Shown: positions 4,589 through 23,936, counted from the first letter of the stretch. The stretch is DNA of 64,000 nucleotides from an uncultured Candidatus Saccharibacteria bacterium (GCA_964517275.1 CAZFBL010000001.1:14144-78143); one strand, 5' to 3'. The notes: generated by a model not told the origin, from the letters alone. Translations and numbers: made by a program.

Positions 4589-6991
4589 CTAAACAACTAA
4601 ATTAACTAAGCGGTTGGGAATATATATCACTTTTTCCGGCTTCTTACCAGCTAACCACTTCTTAACTTTCTCTTGAGAGAGAGCCAATTTTTTAACCTCT
4701 TCCTCGCTAATACCTTTTTTAACTTCTATTTTATCCCTGACCTTGCCGTTGACTTGAATAATCAACTGCCAGCTTTCTTCTTCAGATAATTTCTGGTCAG
4801 CTTGGGGCCATTTTTCTAAAAAGATACTCTTCTGATGGCCCAGTTTTTCCCATAATTCCTCGGATAAATGAGGAGCCAGTGGGGCTAGCAAATAAAGGAA
4901 GATTTCCGCTTCCTTTTTGGCCAGAATTTGCTTGTCGGCAACCCAAAGATTAGTAAATTCCATAAAAGAGGCAACGGCTGTGTTAAATTTCATCGCCTCT
5001 AAATCGCCGCTAACCTTCTTAATTAATTGATGGATTTTGGATAATAATTCTTTACTAGTCTGCGAGCCGATTTTCTGCTGGTCATCGAATATTTGCCAAA
5101 TTCGATTAAGGAAACGATAGCAGCCTTGGACTCCTTCGGTGCTCCAATTAATCATTTGAGCAAAAGGGCCCATAAACATTTCATAAATTCTCAAAGTATC
5201 GGCTCCGTACTCGCTTACGACATCATCTGGCCGAATAACATTGCCGAAACTCTTACTCATTTTCCGCCCATCTTCAGCTAAAACCACTCCGTGAGAATAA
5301 CGACGCTGATAAGGTTCAATGGTTGGCACTATTTTCAGGTCATATAAAAATTTATGCCAGAAGCGGGAATAAAGTAAATGGAGAGTGGTATGTTCCATGC
5401 CGCCATTATACAAATCAACCGGCAACCAGTATTTTAATTTTTTAAAATCAGCCAATTCTTTATCATTTTTCGGGTCAAGGTATCTCAAAAAATACCAAGA
5501 TGAACCGGCCCAATTAGGCATAGTATCAGTTTCTCTATGGGCTGACCGGCCGCACTTCGGACATTTGGTTTCCACCCAATCTTTAATTTTAGCCAAAGGA
5601 GACTGGCCGGTCTCGCTCGGCTGATATTTTTCAACCGGCGGCAATTTCACCGGTAAATCCTTATCCGGTACGGCCACCGCCCCGCATTTCGGACAATGAA
5701 TAATCGGAATCGGCTCGCCCCAATAATGCTGGCGGGAAAATATCCAATCGCGTAGTTTGTACTGAATTGTTTTTCGGCCTGATTTGTTCTTGGCCAGCCA
5801 CTCGGTAATCTTTTTAATCGCCTCTTGAGAAGACAAGCCGTTAAACCGGTCAGAATTAACTAATTGGCCATATTCGGTGTAGGGCTCTTCAGAAATGTTC
5901 CCGCCGCTAATGACTTCTCGAATCTCCAGACCATATTTTTTAGCAAAAGCATAATCTCTTTTGTCATGAGCCGGGACAATCATGACCGCCCCGCCGCCAT
6001 AAGTGGCAATCACGTAATCACTGACCCAAATCGGTATTTTTTCCTGATTAATCGGATTCAAACAATAGGAACCGAGAAAAACACCGGTCTTTTCCTTATC
6101 TAATTGAGTTCTCTCAAACTCGCTTTTCTTTTTGGAAGCCAAGACGTATTTTTTAACCTCTTCTTTATGTTCTGGGCTGGTTAACTTATCCAATAAAGGG
6201 TGCTCGGGAGCGATAATCATAGCGGTGATGCCGAAAATAGTATCAACTCGGGTAGTAAAAACAGTAATCATATCCTTTGAATCAACGACCGGGAAATTAA
6301 TTTCGGTACCATAACTGCGGCCAATCCAGTTAATCTGTTGTCTTTTAATTTTTTCCAAATAATCAACTTTTTCCAAATCGTCAATTAACCGGTCAGCATA
6401 GGCGGTGATTTTAAGCATCCATTGCTTAAGAGTTCTCTGCTCGGTCTGAGCCCCACAGCGCTCGCATTTGCCGCCGATAACTTCTTCGTTGGCTAAACCG
6501 ATTTTACAGCTGGGACACCAGTTAATCGGCATTTCCGACTGATAAGCCAAACCTTTTTTGAAAAACTGGAGGAATATCCACTGGGACCAACGGTAATACT
6601 TCGGGTCGGTCGTGTTAATCTCCCGTGACCAATCAAAAGAAAGACCTAAGGAATTCATCTGTTTTTTAAAAACCTTAATGTTATCTTCAGTCACTTTGGC
6701 TGGATGAATGCCGGTCTTGATGGCGTAATTTTCGGTCGGCAAACCAAAAGCGTCCCAGCCCATCGGATAGAGCACATTAAAACCTTCCATTCTTTTCTTA
6801 CGAGCCAGGGCGTCTAAGGCCACGTAACTGCGAACGTGGCCAACGTGGAGGCCATCGCCCGAAGGATAGGGGAATTCAACCATCAGATATTTCTTTGGTT
6901 TTTTGGAAAAATCCTCGGCCTGGTAGATTTTCTGCTTAGCCCATTTCTGCTGCCATTTTTTTTCAATTTTCTGCGGATTATATTTAGACAT
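4589..6991 (-). CDS. leuS: Leucyl-tRNA synthetase
   Basis: HIGH region FPYPSGDGLHVGHVRSY. KMSKS as KMSKSFGN. 800 aa. Confidence 0.95.
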   Translation of the reverse strand: MSKYNPQKIEKKWQQKWAKQKIYQAEDFSKKPKKYLMVEFPYPSGDGLHVGHVRSYVALDALARKKRMEGFNVLYPMGWDAFGLPTENYAIKTGIHPAKVTEDNIKVFKKQMNSLGLSFDWSREINTTDPKYYRWSQWIFLQFFKKGLAYQSEMPINWCPSCKIGLANEEVIGGKCERCGAQTEQRTLKQWMLKITAYADRLIDDLEKVDYLEKIKRQQINWIGRSYGTEINFPVVDSKDMITVFTTRVDTIFGITAMIIAPEHPLLDKLTSPEHKEEVKKYVLASKKKSEFERTQLDKEKTGVFLGSYCLNPINQEKIPIWVSDYVIATYGGGAVMIVPAHDKRDYAFAKKYGLEIREVISGGNISEEPYTEYGQLVNSDRFNGLSSQEAIKKITEWLAKNKSGRKTIQYKLRDWIFSRQHYWGEPIPIIHCPKCGAVAVPDKDLPVKLPPVEKYQPSETGQSPLAKIKDWVETKCPKCGRSAHRETDTMPNWAGSSWYFLRYLDPKNDKELADFKKLKYWLPVDLYNGGMEHTTLHLLYSRFWHKFLYDLKIVPTIEPYQRRYSHGVVLAEDGRKMSKSFGNVIRPDDVVSEYGADTLRIYEMFMGPFAQMINWSTEGVQGCYRFLNRIWQIFDDQQKIGSQTSKELLSKIHQLIKKVSGDLEAMKFNTAVASFMEFTNLWVADKQILAKKEAEIFLYLLAPLAPHLSEELWEKLGHQKSIFLEKWPQADQKLSEEESWQLIIQVNGKVRDKIEVKKGISEEEVKKLALSQEKVKKWLAGKKPEKVIYIPNRLVNLVV

Positions 6992-8831: not shown

Positions 8832-10259
8832 TTACAATCGCGGAAATAAAACCGCGCTTTTTTTATTTTGTTTGACTTGCTCCTTTATTTTTCCTGCTGT
8901 TTCCGGTATAAACGGTTCTAATAAACCAGCAATTTCTTTTAAGGCATTTAAAAGCGCTCCTAACGATTTCTTGGCCTTTTCAGAATCATTTTTGACTAAT
9001 TCCCAAATTTTATTTCTATCCACAAACTCATCGCAAGCGCCGACCAAACGCCAAACCGCCTCTAAAGCCTCATTGAACTTTATTTCTTCCATCGCCTTTT
9101 TGTATTTTTCTTGAGTTGATTTAATTTCTTTAGCTAATTGACCTTCAACAGACTTAGTTGGCTCCGTCTTCTCCGATAAAGTTAAAACCCGACTGACCAA
9201 ATTGCCCAATCCGTTGGCTAAGTCAGCATTATAACGTTCTTCAAAACGTTTAATCGAAAAATCACCATCCTGACCGAAAGAAATTTCCCTTAACAGGAAA
9301 TACCTCAAGGCATCAGCCCCGTATTTGTCAGCTAAATAAACCGGGTCAATAACATTGCCCAGGGTTTTACTCATCTTTTGGCCATTAATCGTAAAAAAGC
9401 CGTGAACGAATATTTTTTTCGGCGGCTTTAAGCCAACCGCTAACAATAGAGCCGGCCAAAAAATAGCGTGGAATTTGACGATATCTTTAGCGATTAAATG
9501 CAAATCAGCTGGCCATAATTCTTTAAATTGCTTTGGATTATTTTCATAGCCAATAGCCGTGATATAGTTTTGAAGAGCTTCCACCCAGACGTAAATTTTC
9601 TGTTCCCCGTCAAAAGGCAAATCAATTCCCCATTTGACTTTCTGACGAGAAATAGAAAGATTGCCCAAGTCTTGTTTCAATAAAGAAAGAACCTCTTTTT
9701 TTCTTTCAGGCGGCTCAATAATCATCTGGTCGGTAGTAATTAATTTTTTGACCTGAGGTAAAAAATCTTTCAGTTTGAAAAAATAATTAGTTTCGGAAAC
9801 TAACTGAGGTTCTTTTTTATGAATTGGACATTTACCGTCAACTAAATCCTTTTTAAAAATAAAATCCTCGCAATTAGGACAATAAAGGGCCTTATATTCG
9901 TCTTGATAAATCTTACCGCTTTCTTTAAGTTTTAATAAAAATTTGGTTACCCCTTCTTGATGTCTCTTGTCAGTTGTCCTGATAAAATCATTGTATTTAA
10001 TATTAAGTTTTTGCCAGGCATCCTTAAACTGTTGGGCTATTTTATCAACAAATTCTTGAGGCGACTGTCCGGCTTTTTGAGCCGCTTGAGCAATGTGTTC
10101 GCCATGCTCGTCAGTACCGGTCAAAAAGAAAACCTTCTCGCCTTGTTGCCGACGATAACGCGCCAAAACATCAGCCGCTACGGTCGTGTAAGCCGTACCG
10201 ATATGAGGCGGCTGATTAGTATAGTAAATAGGGGTGGTGATATAGAATTTCTTGGCCAT
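8832..10259 (-). CDS. metG: Methionyl-tRNA synthetase (short form)
   Basis: PIYYTNQPPHIGTAYTTV (HIGH variant HIGT). KMSKTLGNV. 475 aa. Confidence 0.9.
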   Translation of the reverse strand: MAKKFYITTPIYYTNQPPHIGTAYTTVAADVLARYRRQQGEKVFFLTGTDEHGEHIAQAAQKAGQSPQEFVDKIAQQFKDAWQKLNIKYNDFIRTTDKRHQEGVTKFLLKLKESGKIYQDEYKALYCPNCEDFIFKKDLVDGKCPIHKKEPQLVSETNYFFKLKDFLPQVKKLITTDQMIIEPPERKKEVLSLLKQDLGNLSISRQKVKWGIDLPFDGEQKIYVWVEALQNYITAIGYENNPKQFKELWPADLHLIAKDIVKFHAIFWPALLLAVGLKPPKKIFVHGFFTINGQKMSKTLGNVIDPVYLADKYGADALRYFLLREISFGQDGDFSIKRFEERYNADLANGLGNLVSRVLTLSEKTEPTKSVEGQLAKEIKSTQEKYKKAMEEIKFNEALEAVWRLVGACDEFVDRNKIWELVKNDSEKAKKSLGALLNALKEIAGLLEPFIPETAGKIKEQVKQNKKSAVLFPRL

Positions 10260-13692: not shown

Positions 13693-15033
13693 TCACCTCC
13701 CTTCCAATTCTTCCCTCAAATAATCAACTAATTTCTCAATTTTAACCCGTTCCTGTTTCATCGTATCGCGTTCTCGGATAGTTAAATCATTATTTTCTAA
13801 ACTGTCAAAATCAACGGTTAAACAATAAGGAGTGCCAATTTCATCCTGGCGGCGATAGCGCCGGCCGATGGAGCCGACTTCATCATACTGAGACATCCAA
13901 TGAACTTTGAGCAAATCATAAACTTCTTTAGCCTTTTTAACTAAATCTTTTTTATTCTTAACTAAAGGTAAAATAGCCACCTTAATCGGAGCTAATTTCT
14001 TGTCTAAACGTAAAACCACTTCTTTCTCTTTCTTGGCCTCGGTCGTCTTGGTTCGCCCGCCTTCAATCTCGTTATAAGCATTCACCAAAAAAGATAAAAC
14101 ATTGCGGTCAGCGCCAGCTGAGGTCTCAATAATATGGGGAGTAAATTTTTTCTTGGTTTGTTCGTCGTAATAGCTCAAATCCTGACCGCTGTGTCTGCTG
14201 TGATTAGATAAATCCCAATCGCCTCGGTCGTGAATCCCTTCTATCTCGTCCCAACCCCAAGGAAATTTATATTCAATATCAACTGCCTTTTTGGCGTAGT
14301 GAGCTAACTCGTCCGGCCGGTGTTCCCGGAAGCGCAAATTATCTTTTTTAATCCCCAGACCGAGATACCAACTCATTCGCTCTTTTTTCCAATAATCAAA
14401 CCACTTCTTTTTTTCTTTGGCGTCCGGTTCAACAAAATACTGCATCTCCATTTGTTCAAACTCTCTCATTTTAAAAATAAAATAACGGGTCGTAATTTCG
14501 TTACGAAAAGCCTTACCGATTTGGGCGATGCCGAAAGGAATTTTTAAACGCATCGTGTCCTTCATAAACTGGTAATTCATATAAATACCCTGGCAGGTCT
14601 CTCCTCTTAAATAAGTAACAGACGCCTCGTCCTCAACTGAACCGACAAATGTTTTCATCATCAGATTGAATTTTCTCTCTTTAGTCAATTCGCCGCCGCA
14701 ATCTGGACATTTATCCTCTTTTAAATAATCCTTACGGAAACGGTGATGACATTCTTTGCACTCAACCAAAGAGTCGGCAAAACCGGCTGTTAAATGACCT
14801 GAAGCCTGCCAAACTTTGGGCGACATCAAAATACTGGCATCCACACCAACAATGTCATCACGGTATTGAGTCATTGTTTTCCACCAGCTTTGTTTAATAC
14901 TACTCTTCAGCAGAGCGCCCAAAAAGCCGTAATCATAACAACTTTCAAAACCGCCATAAATTTCGCTGGAAGGAGTGATAAACCCCCGCCGTTTACAAAG
15001 AGAAACAATTTTTTCCATTAAATCCTGGGGCAT
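13693..15033 (-). CDS. glyQS: Glycyl-tRNA synthetase (dimeric class II GlyRS)
   Basis: GFITPSSEIYGGFESCYDYGFLGA N-terminus. Class II motifs. 446 aa. Confidence 0.9.
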   Translation of the reverse strand: MPQDLMEKIVSLCKRRGFITPSSEIYGGFESCYDYGFLGALLKSSIKQSWWKTMTQYRDDIVGVDASILMSPKVWQASGHLTAGFADSLVECKECHHRFRKDYLKEDKCPDCGGELTKERKFNLMMKTFVGSVEDEASVTYLRGETCQGIYMNYQFMKDTMRLKIPFGIAQIGKAFRNEITTRYFIFKMREFEQMEMQYFVEPDAKEKKKWFDYWKKERMSWYLGLGIKKDNLRFREHRPDELAHYAKKAVDIEYKFPWGWDEIEGIHDRGDWDLSNHSRHSGQDLSYYDEQTKKKFTPHIIETSAGADRNVLSFLVNAYNEIEGGRTKTTEAKKEKEVVLRLDKKLAPIKVAILPLVKNKKDLVKKAKEVYDLLKVHWMSQYDEVGSIGRRYRRQDEIGTPYCLTVDFDSLENNDLTIRERDTMKQERVKIEKLVDYLREELEGR

Positions 15034-17512: not shown

Positions 17513-20500
17513 TTATCTCTTCCTAATCCCCAACCAGATTTTTTGGCCGTCTAATTTAACTTCCTTTTCAACTAAAAAAGTTTCTTTTCTTTTGGTCGTC
17601 GCCTCAATCCGGTTAGCTGAAACTTCTGCTCTGATAACTGATTCATTTTTCTGGACTAATTTCCTTAAAGAAGGACTGGTTGAGTAGCGCAGATAAATTT
17701 TATCTCCCGGTTTCAAGCCGCCGTCTTTGCGCATTCCTTGAACAAAGCGAATCAAATCACGGACAATCCCCTCGGCTCTTAGCTTCGGACTAATCTTAGT
17801 ATCTAATTTAATTTCCTTGCCAAAAACCACCTCTTTTACATTAACCTCTTCGGCCAATAAATTAGCCATTCCTTTATCAGTCGCTATCGGTTTGCTGCTA
17901 ATAGTCAATTTCTCAAGCGGTTGTCTGACTTTAAGACCGGCCTTGGCTCTTTGAGCTAAACCAACAGCCGCTATTTGACGCAGTTCCGACATTTTGGCCT
18001 CTAGTTTTTTGTCAATTAATTTCTTATCGGACTTGGGGTAATCAGCCAAATGGACTGAAGAGCCCTTTTCCAAATGCTGGTATATTTCTTCGGTCAGAAA
18101 AGGCAGAAAAGGAGCAGCTAATTTAACTAATTTCAAAAGAACAAAAGAATAAACTTTCTGGGCCTCTTTTTTCTCCGAAAGATTAATCGGCCTTTGAAAG
18201 AGACGGCGGGAACGCCGAACATACCAGTTGGAAAAATCTTCCAAAAAATCATCCAGCAAACGGGCTGCTTTGGTCAATTCATACTTATCCATCCATTTAA
18301 CCATTTCTTGATTAAGAGTGTTGAACAAAGAAATAATCCATCTGTCCAAAGCGTTTTTCGGTTTAACTGATTTGGGAGCCAAACATTCTCCGTCGGTATA
18401 GGTGTCTAAAAAAGTAAAGGAATTATAAAAAGTCATAATCGTCCGCCGAAAGGTCTCGGCAATCCTCTTTTCGGAGACGATATAATCCTCGCCCATCGGG
18501 GTGCCGGTCAATAGGTAATAGCGTATGGCATCAGCCCCGTATTTGTCAAAAATGGCCTCCGGGGCAGGATAATTTTTTAGACGCTTGGAAAGCTTTTTGC
18601 CGTCTTCGCCCAAAACCAAGCCGTTAACGATAACGTTCTTGAAGGCGGGCTGATTCTTGCCTAAGCCCAAATTCTTTAGAGTCAAGGCGCTGGCCAAAAC
18701 ATGCAAGGTATAGAACCAGCCGCGGGTCTGGTCAATCCCTTCGGCGATAAAGTCAGCCGGGAATGTTTTCTCAACCAGCTCTTTATTCTGAAAAGGATAA
18801 TGCCATTGACCGTAAGGCATTGAACCGCTTTCAAACCAACAGTCAAAAACCTCCGATGTCCTTTTCATCGTTCCGCCGCAGGAACAAGGAATCTCTATCT
18901 GGTCAACAAAAGGCCGATGTAAATTTAAATTACCCTGGTCATCAAAAGGCAATTTCTTGAACTTAAGAGACGATAATTGTCCAACTTGAACAAGTTCTTT
19001 TTCCCTATTGTTGGCTATCTCCTCGTTAGACAATCCCCGACTGGCCCCTTTGAGAATCCAAAGAGGACCGCCATGGCCGACAATTAAAATATTCTTATTC
19101 CGATATTTTTTATCCGTGGCCAGGAGAAAACTCATCATTCTTTTTTTAACCTGACTAAGATTTTCTCCGCCTGGCGGCGCTTGCTCAAACCTTTTTAGAT
19201 TATCGTTCTGGAAATAAGCAAAATATTCTTTAAGCGGCCTGCCCTTGAATTTACCCATCTCAATATCTCGTAAACGCCGGTCCTGAATAACTTTAATCCC
19301 CAGGGCTTGACCGATAATAGAAGCGGTCTGCCGGGTCCGGAAGAAATCGGAGCTGAAAATTAAATCTATCTTAGCTTTCTTTAATTCCGGCACCAAGCTC
19401 CTAATCTCATTTTCGCCTTTCCCTGTCAGAGGCATTTTTCGGTTTTCGGTATCGGTATAAATCTGATAATCTATGTTAAACTTGGTCTGGCCGTGACGAA
19501 GGATATAGTAATTATTTCTTTTCGCCTTTTGGGCCAGTTCATCAAGTCCGCCAATGACCTCGGTCCGGCCGCACTTTGAACATTGCCAAATAGGAATCGG
19601 GGTTCCCCAATAACGGTTGCGGGAGATAGACCAATCGCGTGCCCCTTCCAGCCATTTGCCAAAACGTCCCTTTTTCAAATGACCAGGCACCCATCTAATC
19701 TTTTGATTATTGGCGACCAGCTCTTTTTTAAACTTGGTTACCGCCACGTACCAACTGTTAATCGGGTAGTAAAGCAACGGACTTTCACAGCGCCAGCAAA
19801 AAGGATAAGCGTGTTTAATCTTTTCGGCTTTGAATAATAGGTCACGTTTCTTTAAATCAGCTTTGATATCCTGGTCGGCCTTCTTGACAAATTTGCCTTC
19901 GCCCGGAATCTTTAATCCTTTAATTACCTTGCCCTCTTCGTCAACGGTAATCAGACCGGGTAAATCTTCTTTCTGGCCTAATTCCATATCTTCCTCGCCA
20001 AAAGTCGGAGCAATATGAACTAAGCCGGTCCCGTCTTCCACCGAAACAAAATCAGCCGGGACAATCCGATAGCCTGGTTTATCCAATTTCATCGGATAAA
20101 GCGGTTGATATTCCAAACCAACCAAATCCCGGCCAAATAACTCTTCAACCACTTCGCACTTTCCGGCTTTAGTCAAAACATCCAGACGCTCTTTGGCTAA
20201 GATATAGTACTGGTTATTGAATTTAACTTTAAGGTATTTGAAATCCGGGCCGACAGCGACAGCTGTATTGGCGGCTAGAGTCCAAGGAGTGGTTGTCCAG
20301 ACAAATAAAAAAGTATCCGGCTGGCCCTTTAAAGGAAATTTAATATAGACCGATTCGTCTTCCACTTCCTGATAAGCACCGGGCTGATTCAATTCAAAAT
20401 TAGACAGAGGCGTGCCGCAGCGCGGGCAATAAGGAGTCACCCGAAAATCCTGATAAACTAAGCCCTGCTCCCACAATTGTTTCAATACCCACCAAACTGA

Positions 20501-20950
20501 TTCAATGTATTCATTATCCAGAGTGGCGTAAGATTGAGAAAAATCCGCCCAACGAGCAACTCGGTTAAAGGTTTTGTACCAATCGTTAATACATTGAAAA
20601 ACCGACTGACGACAGGCCTGATTAAATTTCTTAATCCCAAATTTCTCAATCTCTTTTTTGCTTTTCAAGCCCAATTTCTGTTCAATCATATTTTCAACCG
20701 GCAAACCATGGCAATCCCAGCCAACCCGCCAGCCAATACGATGGCCTTTCATCGCCCAATAACGCAAGACCGTATCTTTAATCGTCCCGGCTAGAATATT
20801 GCCGTAATGAGGCAAACCGGAGGCAAAAGGCGGTCCATCATAAAAACTAAAAAAGGGCTTCTTCTGGCGAAGCTTAATCGATTTGGCAAAAATGTCCTCT
20901 TTTTGCCAAAACTTCAATATTTTCTTCTCTATTTTAGGAATCGGATTCAT
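17513..20950 (-). CDS. ileS: Isoleucyl-tRNA synthetase (type 2) carrying an inserted histidine-phosphatase (PGAM-like) domain
   Basis: PPFASGLPHYGNILAG (HIGH variant HYGN). KLSKRLKNYP (KMSKS). 1145 aa. An insert of about 185 aa sits between PIPIW-QCSKCG and HRPFVD, with RHGQT...SSDFFRTRQTA...LIVGHGGP. Confidence 0.9.
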   Translation of the reverse strand: MNPIPKIEKKILKFWQKEDIFAKSIKLRQKKPFFSFYDGPPFASGLPHYGNILAGTIKDTVLRYWAMKGHRIGWRVGWDCHGLPVENMIEQKLGLKSKKEIEKFGIKKFNQACRQSVFQCINDWYKTFNRVARWADFSQSYATLDNEYIESVWWVLKQLWEQGLVYQDFRVTPYCPRCGTPLSNFELNQPGAYQEVEDESVYIKFPLKGQPDTFLFVWTTTPWTLAANTAVAVGPDFKYLKVKFNNQYYILAKERLDVLTKAGKCEVVEELFGRDLVGLEYQPLYPMKLDKPGYRIVPADFVSVEDGTGLVHIAPTFGEEDMELGQKEDLPGLITVDEEGKVIKGLKIPGEGKFVKKADQDIKADLKKRDLLFKAEKIKHAYPFCWRCESPLLYYPINSWYVAVTKFKKELVANNQKIRWVPGHLKKGRFGKWLEGARDWSISRNRYWGTPIPIWQCSKCGRTEVIGGLDELAQKAKRNNYYILRHGQTKFNIDYQIYTDTENRKMPLTGKGENEIRSLVPELKKAKIDLIFSSDFFRTRQTASIIGQALGIKVIQDRRLRDIEMGKFKGRPLKEYFAYFQNDNLKRFEQAPPGGENLSQVKKRMMSFLLATDKKYRNKNILIVGHGGPLWILKGASRGLSNEEIANNREKELVQVGQLSSLKFKKLPFDDQGNLNLHRPFVDQIEIPCSCGGTMKRTSEVFDCWFESGSMPYGQWHYPFQNKELVEKTFPADFIAEGIDQTRGWFYTLHVLASALTLKNLGLGKNQPAFKNVIVNGLVLGEDGKKLSKRLKNYPAPEAIFDKYGADAIRYYLLTGTPMGEDYIVSEKRIAETFRRTIMTFYNSFTFLDTYTDGECLAPKSVKPKNALDRWIISLFNTLNQEMVKWMDKYELTKAARLLDDFLEDFSNWYVRRSRRLFQRPINLSEKKEAQKVYSFVLLKLVKLAAPFLPFLTEEIYQHLEKGSSVHLADYPKSDKKLIDKKLEAKMSELRQIAAVGLAQRAKAGLKVRQPLEKLTISSKPIATDKGMANLLAEEVNVKEVVFGKEIKLDTKISPKLRAEGIVRDLIRFVQGMRKDGGLKPGDKIYLRYSTSPSLRKLVQKNESVIRAEVSANRIEATTKRKETFLVEKEVKLDGQKIWLGIRKR

Positions 20951-20951
20951 C

Positions 20952-22502
20952 CTACATTTTCTCCGGCGCTTGAATGCCCATTAACTTTAAAACGTTTCTT
21001 AAAACAATCTGTGTTGCTTTGATTAAACCAAGTCGGGCTCGGCTTAATTCTTTATTCTGTTCATCTAAAACCCGGCACTGTTCATAAAATTTATGAAAGG
21101 AATTAGCTAACTCCAAAGAATAGTAGGGCAGTCGCTGGACTTGGTAATCTCGGCTGGTTTCTTCAATAATTTCCGGGAACTTGATTAACTGGCGAATAAG
21201 GCTTAATTCGCTCAAGCCAAGGTTCGACCTTTCGAGCGCGACCTTGCCTTTGGCAATGTCGCTACTCTCAATGTCAAACCTTGCTTTCGCTTTTGCCAGA
21301 ATACTGTGTATTCTGGCGTGGGCGTACTGGACATAATAGACCGGATTCTTGGCTGATTGTTCCTGGGCCAAGGCCAAATCAAAATTCAAATGAGTATCCG
21401 GGGATTTTTGTAAAAAGAAAAATCTAACTGCGTCAGAGCCAACTTTATCCAACAACTCATCCATGCCTACATAAAAGCCGGCCCGCTTAGACATTTTTTT
21501 CTGAGCACCTTTTTCTAAAATAGTCACAAATTGCAAAAGAATAATCTCTAACTTGTCTTTATGGCCAATCGCCTCTACCGCGGCTATTAATCCGGGGATA
21601 TCGCCATGATGGTCAGCTCCCCAAATATTAATCACTCTATCAAAACCCTTGTCCTCAAACTTATACTGATGCAAAGCAATATCACCAGCTAAATAGGTTT
21701 TACCACCATCTTTTTTGACTACCACCCGGTCCCGTTGATCGCCGAACTTGGATGACTTAAACCATTGGGCATCTTCTTTCTGCTCAATTAAACCCTTTTC
21801 GGTTAAATATTTCAAGACCTTGTCTACCCGACCGGACTGATGTAAGTCAGATTCAAAAATCCATTCATCATATTTAATCCCTAATTTATCAGTCGTCTTT
21901 TGAATTGAATCTTTAACAATATGCTTAGCCGCTAGTTGACCGACCTTAAAAGGGTCTTTTTCTTTGACTTTTTTAGCTAATTCATCAATATATTCGCCTT
22001 TGTACTTGGCCTGTTCGTCTTTCAGAACGGAATGACCTAAACTCGAAATCTGCTGACCGTAATCATTAACATAATAGGCTTTTTCTGTCTGGAAACCGGC
22101 TTTTTTTAAAATATTAGCTAAAACATCGCCATAAGGACCGCCCCGGGCATTAGCTACGGTTAAAGGTCCGGTCGGGTTGGCTGAAATAAACTCTACCTGG
22201 ACCTTTTTATTCTGACCAATATCCAATTGGCCATAACTATCTCCTTGCTTAATAATTTCAGCCAATTCTTCCTGAAGCGCTTTTTCAGATAAAAAAAAGT
22301 TAATAAAACCCGGCCCAGCTTTTTCCACTTTATCGAATAAAGGATTATTCTTTAACGATCCTATAATTTTAGCAGGGTCGGTTTTAGTTTGCAGTGCAAT
22401 GTTGGTTGAATAATCGCCAAATTCCGAATTAGTCGGATGCTCTAAATGAACCTCTTTTTTGACAATTTCTTTAATTAATTTCTCAATTTTTTTTCTGAGC
22501 AT
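20952..22502 (-). CDS. argS: Arginyl-tRNA synthetase
   Basis: SANPTGPL-TVAN-ARGG (HIGH position). KKMSKRAG. DALR-domain start VQYAHARI. Confidence 0.85.
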   Translation of the reverse strand: MLRKKIEKLIKEIVKKEVHLEHPTNSEFGDYSTNIALQTKTDPAKIIGSLKNNPLFDKVEKAGPGFINFFLSEKALQEELAEIIKQGDSYGQLDIGQNKKVQVEFISANPTGPLTVANARGGPYGDVLANILKKAGFQTEKAYYVNDYGQQISSLGHSVLKDEQAKYKGEYIDELAKKVKEKDPFKVGQLAAKHIVKDSIQKTTDKLGIKYDEWIFESDLHQSGRVDKVLKYLTEKGLIEQKEDAQWFKSSKFGDQRDRVVVKKDGGKTYLAGDIALHQYKFEDKGFDRVINIWGADHHGDIPGLIAAVEAIGHKDKLEIILLQFVTILEKGAQKKMSKRAGFYVGMDELLDKVGSDAVRFFFLQKSPDTHLNFDLALAQEQSAKNPVYYVQYAHARIHSILAKAKARFDIESSDIAKGKVALERSNLGLSELSLIRQLIKFPEIIEETSRDYQVQRLPYYSLELANSFHKFYEQCRVLDEQNKELSRARLGLIKATQIVLRNVLKLMGIQAPEKM

Positions 22503-22571: not shown

Positions 22572-22646
22572 TTAATACCGTGGATGCGCCACGGTCCGCT
22601 AGCCATCTAGCAGAAAAAAATTAAAAATCTAAAAATGGAGAATACT

Positions 22647-22973
22647 ATGTTAGAAGGGGTAGCCAGAATATACGGTTTTGTGTTAGAAGCGCCAGAAGAA
22701 ATTAAAAAAGCAGCTGGCGGAAAAGTGTATCTCGAATTCGAATGGTCTGTTGAAAGCGGCGAATTATGTGTGGCTGAACAAATCACGACCTCGGCAACCA
22801 TAGGTTTTTGTTCCAATAATGGAATAAAGCTCTTCAACTTCACAGATTTTAACGATCCTCTTCACGAAAAACCGAAAAAATGGGTGGTTTTCGGTTCTGC
22901 TAAAAACTTTGACGAGGCCCGTCTACGGGCACAAGAAGCCATTGACGAAAAAATAATAGGAAGGATTAACTGA
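22647..22973 (+). CDS. Hypothetical protein (108 aa)
   Basis: ORF with GGAG 7 nt upstream of ATG 22647. The in-frame ATG at 22635 has no SD. Confidence 0.5.
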   Translation: MLEGVARIYGFVLEAPEEIKKAAGGKVYLEFEWSVESGELCVAEQITTSATIGFCSNNGIKLFNFTDFNDPLHEKPKKWVVFGSAKNFDEARLRAQEAIDEKIIGRIN

Positions 22974-23068: not shown

Positions 23069-23518
23069 ATGCCCACCTTAGCCAAAAATCCGCGAGCTAA
23101 ATACGATTACCATATTTTAGCCACCTTTGAGGCCGGTTTGGTTTTAGCCGGCCACGAAGTTAAGGCCATCAAAACCGGACACATGAGTTTAAAAGGGGCT
23201 TATGTGACCATCAAAAATGAAGAGGTCTGGTTGATTAATGCCTTTATTCCGCCCTACCAACCGAAGAATACGCCGGCCGACTATCAGCCGGACCGAACCA
23301 GAAAATTGCTTTTGAATAAAAAAGAGATAAGAAGTTTAATCGGCCAGTCAAAACAGAAAGGCTTGACTTTAGTCCCCTTGCGGGTTTATACTAAAAAAGG
23401 AAAAATAAAGCTGGAATTTGCTTTAGGCCGCGGTAAACGACAATTTGACAAACGTCAAAAAATTAAAGAAAGAGAAAGCAAAAGGAAAATTGACCGGGCC
23501 TTGAAAAATCGCTCTTAA
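23069..23518 (+). CDS. smpB: SsrA-binding protein SmpB
   Basis: KYDYHILATFEAGLVLAGHEVKAIKTG... is a typical SmpB core. Confidence 0.9.
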   Translation: MPTLAKNPRAKYDYHILATFEAGLVLAGHEVKAIKTGHMSLKGAYVTIKNEEVWLINAFIPPYQPKNTPADYQPDRTRKLLLNKKEIRSLIGQSKQKGLTLVPLRVYTKKGKIKLEFALGRGKRQFDKRQKIKERESKRKIDRALKNRS

Positions 23519-23600: not shown

Positions 23601-23936
23601 GGGGGCGCTAGGCCTCGATGGGAAGTAATTTCAAAATAGGCAAGCCAAGCGGAATCTTGTTAACTTTCATAAAACAATTGCCAACTTAAAAGTTGCTCCT
23701 GCTTACGCTTAAGTAAGCAGCATCTGCTTGATTGACTCTCGATAGATAAAGCAGGTGTCATTGATCGAGATAGACAGAGCTTGAGTTAGGCAGCTCTGTT
23801 CGAAGATTACTAACTAGAGATAAGAGGATTTTGTCTTTTTTAGACCGATTATCTCAAATCTTCCAAAAAAGACTAAACTTGTAGAATATTTTGAGAGAAC
23901 TTTCTAGACGGGAGTTCGACTCTCCCCGCCTCCACC
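23601..23936 (+). ncRNA. ssrA: tmRNA (SsrA), standard non-permuted form
   Basis: 5' GGGGGCG...CUCGAUGGG. 3' GGGAGTTCGACTCTCCC T-arm plus CGCCTCCACC acceptor with a G3:U wobble. Internal ORF GCC AAC TTA AAA GTT GCT CCT GCT TAC GCT TAA (tag ANLKVAPAYA), with the stop in a GCTTAC/GTAAGC hairpin loop. Lies immediately downstream of smpB. Confidence 0.8.

Follow-up and report, generated by a model that had tools for sequence, protein, structure and literature searches.

Solved isoleucyl-tRNA synthetases (IleRS) of type 2 (eukaryote-like, mupirocin-resistant), such as 8C8V, 1ILE, and the yeast IleRS-tRNA structure 8WND, have no domain in the loop of their second zinc knuckle. To our knowledge, second catalytic activities inside the catalytic domains of synthetases are rare and have so far been restricted to editing (deacylation), and we know of no place for phosphomonoesterase chemistry in the aminoacylation cycle. 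Here, we describe an IleRS gene (ileS) that carries in exactly this loop, in frame, a second enzyme of 198 amino acids (aa), a complete histidine phosphatase. It lies on a stretch of 64,000 nt from an uncultured Candidatus Saccharibacteria bacterium (GCA_964517275.1 CAZFBL010000001.1:14144-78143), which is referred to below as the window and along which positions are counted from its first letter.

Among synthetases, the closest described case is ileS_w_GNAT (NF040702), a named NCBI exception family of bacterial IleRSs that also have an added enzymatic domain and that show that IleRS tolerates catalytic add-ons; its extra domain is, however, an N-acetyltransferase and not a phosphatase, and the window protein, at 268 bits against a cut-off of 1999, is not a member. 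The YbaK/ProX module with the INS domain of ProRS and AlaX with the editing domain of AlaRS occur free-standing or fused and in a patchy distribution, like the phosphatase of ileS, but these modules are aminoacyl-tRNA deacylases that serve editing, unlike a phosphomonoesterase. Among phosphatases, the RNase H/CobC-like acid phosphatases (Rv2228c type, NF005567; 68.8 bits for our domain against a cut-off of 326) likewise join a branch-1 histidine phosphatase to a nucleic-acid enzyme, although by terminal fusion and to another partner enzyme, and the role of their phosphatase domain is unclear. PhoE/YhfR of Geobacillus stearothermophilus (1EBB, 1H2E), PspA (4IJ5), Rv2419c GpgP (4PZ9), and CobC (6NRU/6E4B) resemble the insert in size (~190-210 aa) and fold, and their catalytic RHG, second Arg, acid, and second His align with those of the insert. 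In contrast, the insert is only 20-27% identical to these proteins, far below the CobC, PspA, GpmB, and dPGM cut-offs, and much more basic; Asp replaces the Glu acid in about half of the members of its family, and the family was never found away from ileS at the examined loci, whereas the known PhoE-type enzymes are standalone metabolic proteins in other contexts.

The novelty is the combination of an ordinary type-2 IleRS host with an ordinary-looking PhoE-like guest. No description of a phosphatase in IleRS was found in a literature search that left subscription journals outside its scope, and a 2026 preprint survey of IleRS domain evolution neither mentions a phosphatase nor discusses an architecture with a domain in the second-knuckle loop; both agree with a preliminary description of the window, made from the sequence alone, that had called the architecture undescribed for IleRS. 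The proteins are present in public databases, where their names include "isoleucyl-tRNA synthetase", "class I tRNA ligase family protein", and "hypothetical protein", and the phosphatase insert accounts for the NCBI pipeline naming them just "class I tRNA ligase family protein". In much of the Parcubacteria, a phosphatase is tied to IleRS in four independent ways: fused, as a translationally coupled neighbour, in tandem arrays, and at a second site.

The host synthetase and its insert

The ileS gene of the window (17513-20950, minus strand) is a single uninterrupted open reading frame (ORF) of 1145 aa, insert included. Its product passed the ileS equivalog TIGR00392 of NCBIfam with 896.1 bits (cut-off 621.4) in two matched stretches that flank the insert, and Pfam placed tRNA-synt_1 in two pieces with His_Phos_1 between them, followed by Anticodon_1 and the type-2 C-terminal DUF5915; the match of PF19302 at aa 1047-1144 likewise gives the C-terminal organisation of type 2, which is free of the zinc-binding domain that ends type 1. 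A full-length AlphaFold2 (AF2) model reached a predicted local distance difference test (pLDDT) score of 90.9, with 92-97 in the blocks of the insert, and a predicted template modelling (pTM) score of 0.83. Its top match in Foldseek was IleRS2 8c8v of Priestia megaterium (E=3e-89), with T. thermophilus 1ile also among the matches, and IleRS2 and eukaryotic IleRSs ranked above IleRS1. With 8C8V, 1ILE, and 8WND the window protein shares domain order and fold (TMt 0.83-0.91), the editing motifs, KMSKS, the PF19302 C-terminal domains, and both Cys4 clusters.

The signature motifs were verified in the translation. KMSKS reads KLSKR (aa 786-790; 18581-18595, minus strand), and the CP1 editing domain has W218-T219-T220-T221-x-W223-T224 and G307-x-G309-x-V311-H312 in columns that are invariant or nearly so. 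HIGH reads HYGN (20798-20809, minus strand) and differs in this from the solved IleRSs; HYGH is found in ~116 of 121 aligned sequences, HYGN in the window and two further proteins (P0070 and P0071), and HHGN in one (P0083). TrpRS carries TIGN as its HIGH-type motif, and by likeness to it we judge the change of the fourth His to Asn to be compatible with activity. The second zinc knuckle consists of C457-S-K-C460 (19571-19582, minus strand) and C689-S-C691 (18878-18886, minus strand), which we take to be equivalent to the Cys461/464/502/504 cluster of T. thermophilus IleRS; among the 60 insert-bearing IleRSs of our alignment, C457 is kept in 58, C460 in 57, and C689 and C691 in 58 each. Connective peptides CP1 and CP2 separate the halves of the IleRS catalytic core (nomenclature of PMC10485003), and from its place in the sequence we infer that this knuckle lies at the end of the connective region, just ahead of the second Rossmann half (DCWFESG...). 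A tblastn search of the 64-kb window found no second ileS and no second copy of the phosphatase, the weak matches being other class I synthetases only. The host is an ordinary type-2 IleRS of a bacterium from the Parcubacteria group (Patescibacteria).

The limits of the insert were set by aligning the window protein with its 120 best database relatives, 61 without and 59 with an insert (60 with the window). The segment that matches aa 455-700 is bimodal in this alignment, with 44-78 aa in the 61 insert-less proteins and 235-257 aa in the other 60, and comparison with the former delimits an insert of 198 aa (aa 478-675; 18926-19519, minus strand) that separates the CSKC half of the second Cys4 zinc knuckle from the CSC half. 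This insert comprises a whole histidine phosphatase and a return linker of 13 aa, KFKKLPFDDQGNL (aa 663-675; 18926-18964, minus strand), that is absent from free-standing phosphatases, which stop at ...GELRKL; G673 of the linker is kept in 54 of the 60 insert-bearing IleRSs.

The phosphatase is recognised by His_Phos_1 (PF00300) at aa 482-646 (19013-19507, minus strand) with E=1e-32 and 113.9 bits, the gathering cut-off being 21.7. Its RHG motif (R485, the nucleophile H486, and G487; 19490-19498, minus strand) has R and H in all 60 insert-bearing IleRSs and G in 55, with A in the remaining 5. The second phosphate-binding Arg, R538 in SSDFFRTRQTA (19337-19339, minus strand), is present in 60 of 60 and aligns with the Arg of SGRALETA in PhoE, and the second catalytic His, H626 in LIVGHGG (19073-19075, minus strand), is equally invariant, as are S534, G566, E596, and R604. 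The position of the general acid (RLRD; 19265-19267, minus strand) aligns with the Glu of RLREIHLG in PhoE and holds Glu, the usual residue, in 32 and Asp in 28 of the 60, the window phosphatase having Asp562. Identity between the inserts drops to ~33% while the catalytic set stays invariant, which indicates a maintained active site, and the full set is also kept in 26 aligned standalone proteins.

Structure comparison gave the same assignment. A profile built from the insert and the sequences nearest to it matched PhoE/YhfR (1ebb/1h2e, E=1e-24) in the Protein Data Bank, and also PspA and CobC, with the catalytic residues in register. The AF2 model of the phosphatase domain alone (pLDDT 91.4), in which RHG sits at the end of strand E480-485, was matched by Foldseek with probability 1.00 and TM 0.69-0.75 to Rv2419c, PspA, PhoE, CobC, and a histidine-family phosphatase of the riboflavin pathway. 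The insert belongs to the small PhoE/PspA/CobC-like phosphatases and is a complete member of branch 1 of the histidine phosphatases, its catalytic set intact. Named families were rejected on their cut-offs: dPGM/GpmB (NF038349, PRK03482, and others; 79.6 against 225 for dPGM_arch, 66.7 against 261 for GpmB, and otherwise 39-40 against 316-320), PspA (NF045917; 60.8 against 350), CobC (TIGR03162; 82.4 against 162.9, in a context of argS/ileS rather than cob genes), and a SixA-like assignment, which was also below its cut-off.

An artefact or a mobile element, that is, a chimeric assembly, an overlooked frameshift or pseudogene, an intein, or a transposon-like insertion, was also considered, and the presence and absence of the domain in near-identical strains (see below) superficially resembles mobile insertion. 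The reading frame is continuous, however, with no frameshift or stop codon anywhere in ileS, insert included, and conservation of the flanks is perfect. More than 50 species-level genomes share the architecture, among them the single-cell genome of Paceibacter normanii (L023) and a closed Nealsonbacteria genome (L015, CP179887.1), and so does a 99%-identical protein on another contig (P0070); with these other contigs, the single-cell and closed genomes, and dozens of metagenome-assembled genomes (MAGs), an assembly artefact was rejected. An intein was rejected on the lack of a Hint or intein match in Pfam and on the junctions K477|R478 and L675|N676, which are not intein-like (Arg478 at the start, ...Gly-Asn-Leu675 followed by Asn676 at the end), and no transposase domain is present. 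The G+C content of the insert (41.1%, compared with 43.3% for the remaining ileS) is host-like and shows no compositional anomaly, so that a foreign origin was rejected, and in the polymorphism between near-identical strains the whole knuckle segment is replaced, without a clean insertion and target-site repeats. We consider an artefact or mobile element to be practically excluded.

The preliminary description had placed a PGAM-like histidine phosphatase with a complete signature (RHGQT, SSDFFRTRQTA, LIVGHGG) in frame inside a type-2 IleRS, between zinc-ribbon halves that are normally close together, and had seen neither intein nor frameshift. All of this is borne out by the continuous ORF and split tRNA-synt_1, the TIGR00392 and structural matches, the bimodal loop length, the junctions, the PF00300 match, and the PhoE-like register and fold; the segment is not a normal IleRS linker, and the same insertion is present in the 59 other aligned IleRSs. 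The length it gave, about 185 aa, has to be corrected to 198 aa, and of its coordinates (18950-19520) the left edge, as read along the gene, agrees with ours, whereas the right edge fell ~24 nt short.

Linkage to ileS and exchange of the cassette

Searches with the insert alone returned mostly standalone proteins of 187-203 aa that are 45-50% identical to it from end to end, and in the alignment the insert equals such a protein from residue 2 or 3 through the last strand, plus the 13-aa linker. Two of these standalone proteins (P0001 and P0021) are encoded downstream of argS and directly upstream of an insert-less ileS, with whose start they overlap by 10-11 nt; the gene order of this unfused architecture is argS, phosphatase, ileS. 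When one genome was scanned for each GTDB species, 380 related loci came up; the 80 best of them were classified together with those of P0001 and P0021, giving 81 distinct loci since L066 and L002 are the same. The domain lies inside ileS at 54 of them and, with L021, which has two such genes, at 55; a separate gene for ~190 aa stands directly upstream of ileS at 25 (gap 0-80 nt in all but two), and the one remaining contig ends before ileS. A phosphatase away from ileS was found at none of the 80 classified loci where ileS is visible, and the association holds also where argS is not adjacent. Distant relatives are not linked to ileS, one lying in a glycosyltransferase/amylase cluster (P0037) and another beside CobS (P0041), and a neighbour-joining tree separates the ileS-linked sequences, inserted and standalone alike, from them as one clade (bootstrap 94/100). 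These sequences form a distinct, very basic subfamily of phosphatases that is linked to ileS at every examined related locus with ileS in view.

Two loci stand apart in content or label. At L002, which is of the unfused type, a pterin-4a-carbinolamine dehydratase-like gene (PF01329; L002:7669-7998) lies between argS and the phosphatase gene, with the overlap of phosphatase and ileS retained. L045 (DATKUR010000003.1) has an insert-bearing ileS in a MAG that bears the label Candidatus Humimicrobiaceae, a name from outside the Patescibacteria, and many other loci are labelled "uncultured Candidatus Saccharibacteria"; these labels appear to be generic or mis-binned.

Fusion has recurred within IleRS. 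Domain mapping, after an exhaustive search that spanned 1.8 billion representative proteins, revealed an IleRS of 1468 aa (P0305) whose knuckle loop holds two phosphatase domains in tandem, partial IleRS sequences with three (P0279) and at least four (P0224) domains, and a protein of 1419 aa (P0280) in which a domain at the usual site is joined by another (aa 865-1052) at the start of the anticodon-binding domain. Two-domain standalone proteins exist as well (P0302, P0332). Each copy in the tandem IleRSs P0305, P0279, P0285, and P0224 has its own RHG and second-His motif; P0280 has RHA in its first-site domain and has lost the zinc-knuckle cysteines that would flank it. At L021, a tandem second ileS-like gene (L021:8098-11127) is still open over 1009 aa and shares 36% identity with the first. 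In it, the CP1 editing domain is missing, HIGH, KMSKS, and DCWFESG are degenerate, and the phosphatase insert reads RPG for RHG; by its motifs, it appears to be a paralogue dead for both activities.

Neighbour-joining trees, built for the phosphatase domain and for the IleRS core, interleave the inserted and adjacent-gene states, with several mixed clades at bootstrap values of 98-100. The IleRS-core tree, for instance, puts the inserted L072 in an adjacent-gene clade of 11 members (100%), and L017 (98%) and L064 (99%) likewise fall in clades of mixed state. Such well-supported interleaving means that the two architectures have been interconverted or exchanged several times; the shallowness of the phosphatase tree and the evident recombination preclude rooting, and the trees give no direction, whether from gene to insert or the reverse. 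The preliminary description had guessed at a functional coupling of phosphatase and IleRS, a guess that now finds backing in the strict linkage to ileS in both fused and unfused form, the recurrent fusion, and the tandem amplification.

The phosphatase is not found in all relatives. In core identity to the window protein (81%), the nearest IleRSs without an insert equal the nearest with one. Three insert-less relatives share the synteny of the window (smpB, argS, ileS, recO, a 622-aa DUF11/DUF7619 protein, and a class II synthetase), and at this locus none of the three has a phosphatase in or beside ileS. From its lack in close relatives it follows that the module is accessory and not integral to the synthetase.

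How the two states replace each other can be read from the insert-bearing L006 and the insert-less L085, whose IleRS cores are 96.5% identical and whose DNA shows 97.3% identity along 3.3 kb on one side and 98.7% along 6.0 kb on the other. In these more than 9 kb the strains differ only by replacement of the CQKCG...CSCGG segment, which measures 682 and 88 bp, respectively (L006:5964-6645 and L085:3327-3414), the residues of the short linker differ too, and the breakpoints fall within the CQKCG and CSCGG codons. This is, on sequence grounds, a cassette replacement by recombination in the conserved zinc-knuckle codons of an essential gene; a clean deletion or a mobile-element insertion was rejected, as the whole knuckle segment including the linker residues was replaced. 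In the clade of the window, the positions that separate insert-bearing from insert-less proteins (463, 464, 476, 681, 685, and 688) all lie within the cassette. Whether or not it holds a phosphatase, the zinc-knuckle segment acts as a cassette that ileS alleles exchange. The natural insert-plus and insert-minus alleles with 97-99% identical flanks make a ready control pair.

Candidate substrates and roles

We read the domain as an accessory phosphomonoesterase that is partnered with IleRS and acts on a phosphorylated ligand of the synthetase, and assign to this reading a probability of about 0.6. The phosphatase would be active as a phosphomonoesterase, and its function would depend on its location at IleRS. 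In the unfused form, the overlapping frames would provide translational coupling and a 1:1 complex, and in the fused form the covalent tether would make this complex permanent. The tether point, as placed by its position in the sequence, would fall within the connective-peptide region, after the editing domain and before the second Rossmann half, where the tethered phosphatase would take phosphate off a polyanionic ligand of the synthetase.

A first clue to this ligand is charge. The ileS-linked phosphatases have a median pI of 9.7-9.9 and a median net charge of +15 to +16 per ~190 aa, compared with a pI of 6.1 and a net charge of -2 in the distant relatives, and the insert of the window, at +8.9 per 100 aa, lies above all 50 ORFs of at least 150 aa in the window (median 2.7). 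Twelve alignment positions hold clade-specific K or R, among them R540, two residues past the catalytic R538. The basic charge suggests a polyanionic substrate or neighbour, such as RNA or nucleotides. It could also belong to a non-catalytic appendage, a basic tRNA-binding or ligand-sensing regulatory module in which phosphatase chemistry is irrelevant; appended non-catalytic tRNA-binding domains are common in synthetases, and the degenerate L021 paralogue keeps the domain despite the change of RHG to RPG. This paralogue is, however, also without the IleRS motifs and thus decaying as a whole, and the invariance of the catalytic set in 60 of 60 functional IleRSs and 26 standalone proteins, with the rest diverging down to 33% identity, makes a purely non-catalytic role quite improbable.

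For an active phosphatase, the substrate that we prefer, though only tentatively and by analogy, is the 3' end of tRNA(Ile) when blocked by a 2'/3'-phosphate, a cyclic phosphate, or a pyrophosphate, which would tie end-healing or detoxification to charging. A nucleotide product, e.g., AMP or 3'-AMP, is a doubtful candidate, and phospho-IleRS itself an unlikely one. A specific version, which we hold to be possible and no better than speculative, is a repair or antidote module that would clear tRNA(Ile) of the phosphate, cyclic phosphate, or pyrophosphate blocking its 3' end, or IleRS of an inhibitory phosphate. The blocks would come from toxSAS-like pyrophosphokinases, RNases, or kinases, and charging would then resume; the toxSAS FaRel2 blocks the CCA end by pyrophosphorylation in a tRNA-specific manner (PMC11559606). 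Presence and absence between strains, cassette exchange, and tandem amplification would then be the marks of an arms race over isoleucine decoding in episymbionts. If this repair or antidote role were true, the domain would be the first enzyme of the histidine phosphatase family to act on tRNA and the first phosphatase activity integrated in an aminoacyl-tRNA synthetase.

Several points weigh against a catalytic partnership of this kind. The domain is below every NCBIfam equivalog cut-off, so that its substrate cannot be read from homology, and the IleRS core itself carries +3.8 per 100 aa, which makes the basic charge partly a general trait of these genomes. We know of no histidine phosphatase that acts on RNA ends, and a literature search brought up none; moreover, an end-repair enzyme on one of twenty synthetases would not obviously be useful unless the damage were specific to tRNA(Ile). 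Neither the insert nor two standalone homologues matched a defence model of PADLOC-DB 2.0. IleRS can also do without the module, which has been lost or swapped out in close relatives, and in the clade of the window no core residue of IleRS was found to co-vary with the insert, which argues against a fixed interface and fits a passive passenger equally well.

Such a passenger is the main rival: an ordinary small-molecule (metabolic or salvage) phosphatase, its chemistry unrelated to IleRS, that chanced to reside in the argS-ileS operon of Parcubacteria and in some lineages was copied into a tolerant surface loop, where it would persist as a harmless and constitutively expressed guest. The easy loss of the insert and the lack of core co-variation speak for it, the solved structures nearest to the domain are those of small-molecule phosphatases (PhoE, PspA, Rv2419c GpgP, CobC, and the riboflavin-pathway enzyme), and the length of the knuckle loop varies even without a phosphatase (44-78 aa in the aligned window), as expected for a permissive site. 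Against it stands the linkage to ileS at 80 of 80 related loci with ileS visible, among cores only ~50% identical and even without adjacent argS, which is much stronger than ordinary operon drift permits. Internal fusion at two sites and tandem amplification inside IleRS likewise speak against a passenger, and the subfamily differs from its metabolic relatives in charge and context. On balance, we regard the passenger as an improbable explanation that deserves to be kept in mind beside the partnered phosphomonoesterase.

A protein phosphatase acting on IleRS, as a built-in antidote to an inhibitory phosphate from a Hip-like or eukaryote-like kinase, would fit the accessory, strain-variable distribution and the tandem amplification, which resemble those of conflict-related genes. 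The histidine phosphatase superfamily includes the protein phosphatases SixA, PGAM5, and Sts-1, and toxin kinases inactivate synthetases, HipA acting on GltX and HipT on TrpS. On the other hand, no IleRS-directed kinase is known to us, conserved kinase genes are missing from the surroundings of the examined loci, the search of PADLOC gave no match, and in sequence as in fold the domain is closest to small-molecule phosphatases rather than to SixA or PGAM5; we therefore think a protein phosphatase unlikely.

The recurrent association has one of two meanings. Either a phosphorylated species matters for isoleucine charging, be it damaged or toxin-modified tRNA ends, a phospho-enzyme, or nucleotide by-products, or these loci show, as an unusually clear natural case, how domains are inserted as modules and cassettes exchanged within an essential gene.

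Neighbouring genes in the window

Upstream of ileS, separated by a spacer of 1 nt, lies argS (20952-22502, minus strand; Pfam Arg_tRNA_synt_N, tRNA-synt_1d, and DALR_1), followed by an ORF of 112 aa without a Pfam match (22635-22973, plus strand) between argS and smpB (23069-23518, plus strand; Pfam SmpB, E=1e-53). The tmRNA gene (23601-23936) comes directly after smpB and encodes the tag peptide ANLKVAPAYA. The block of smpB and argS-ileS-recO with the genes of the DUF11/DUF7619 protein and the class II synthetase (13693-15033 in the window) is syntenic in the related Parcubacteria contigs L083-L085. Two further class I synthetase genes, for products of 800 aa (4589-6991) and 475 aa (8832-10259), gave the weak tblastn matches to IleRS, and together with argS, ileS, and the class II synthetase gene they bring the number of aminoacyl-tRNA synthetase genes within 22 kb to at least five.

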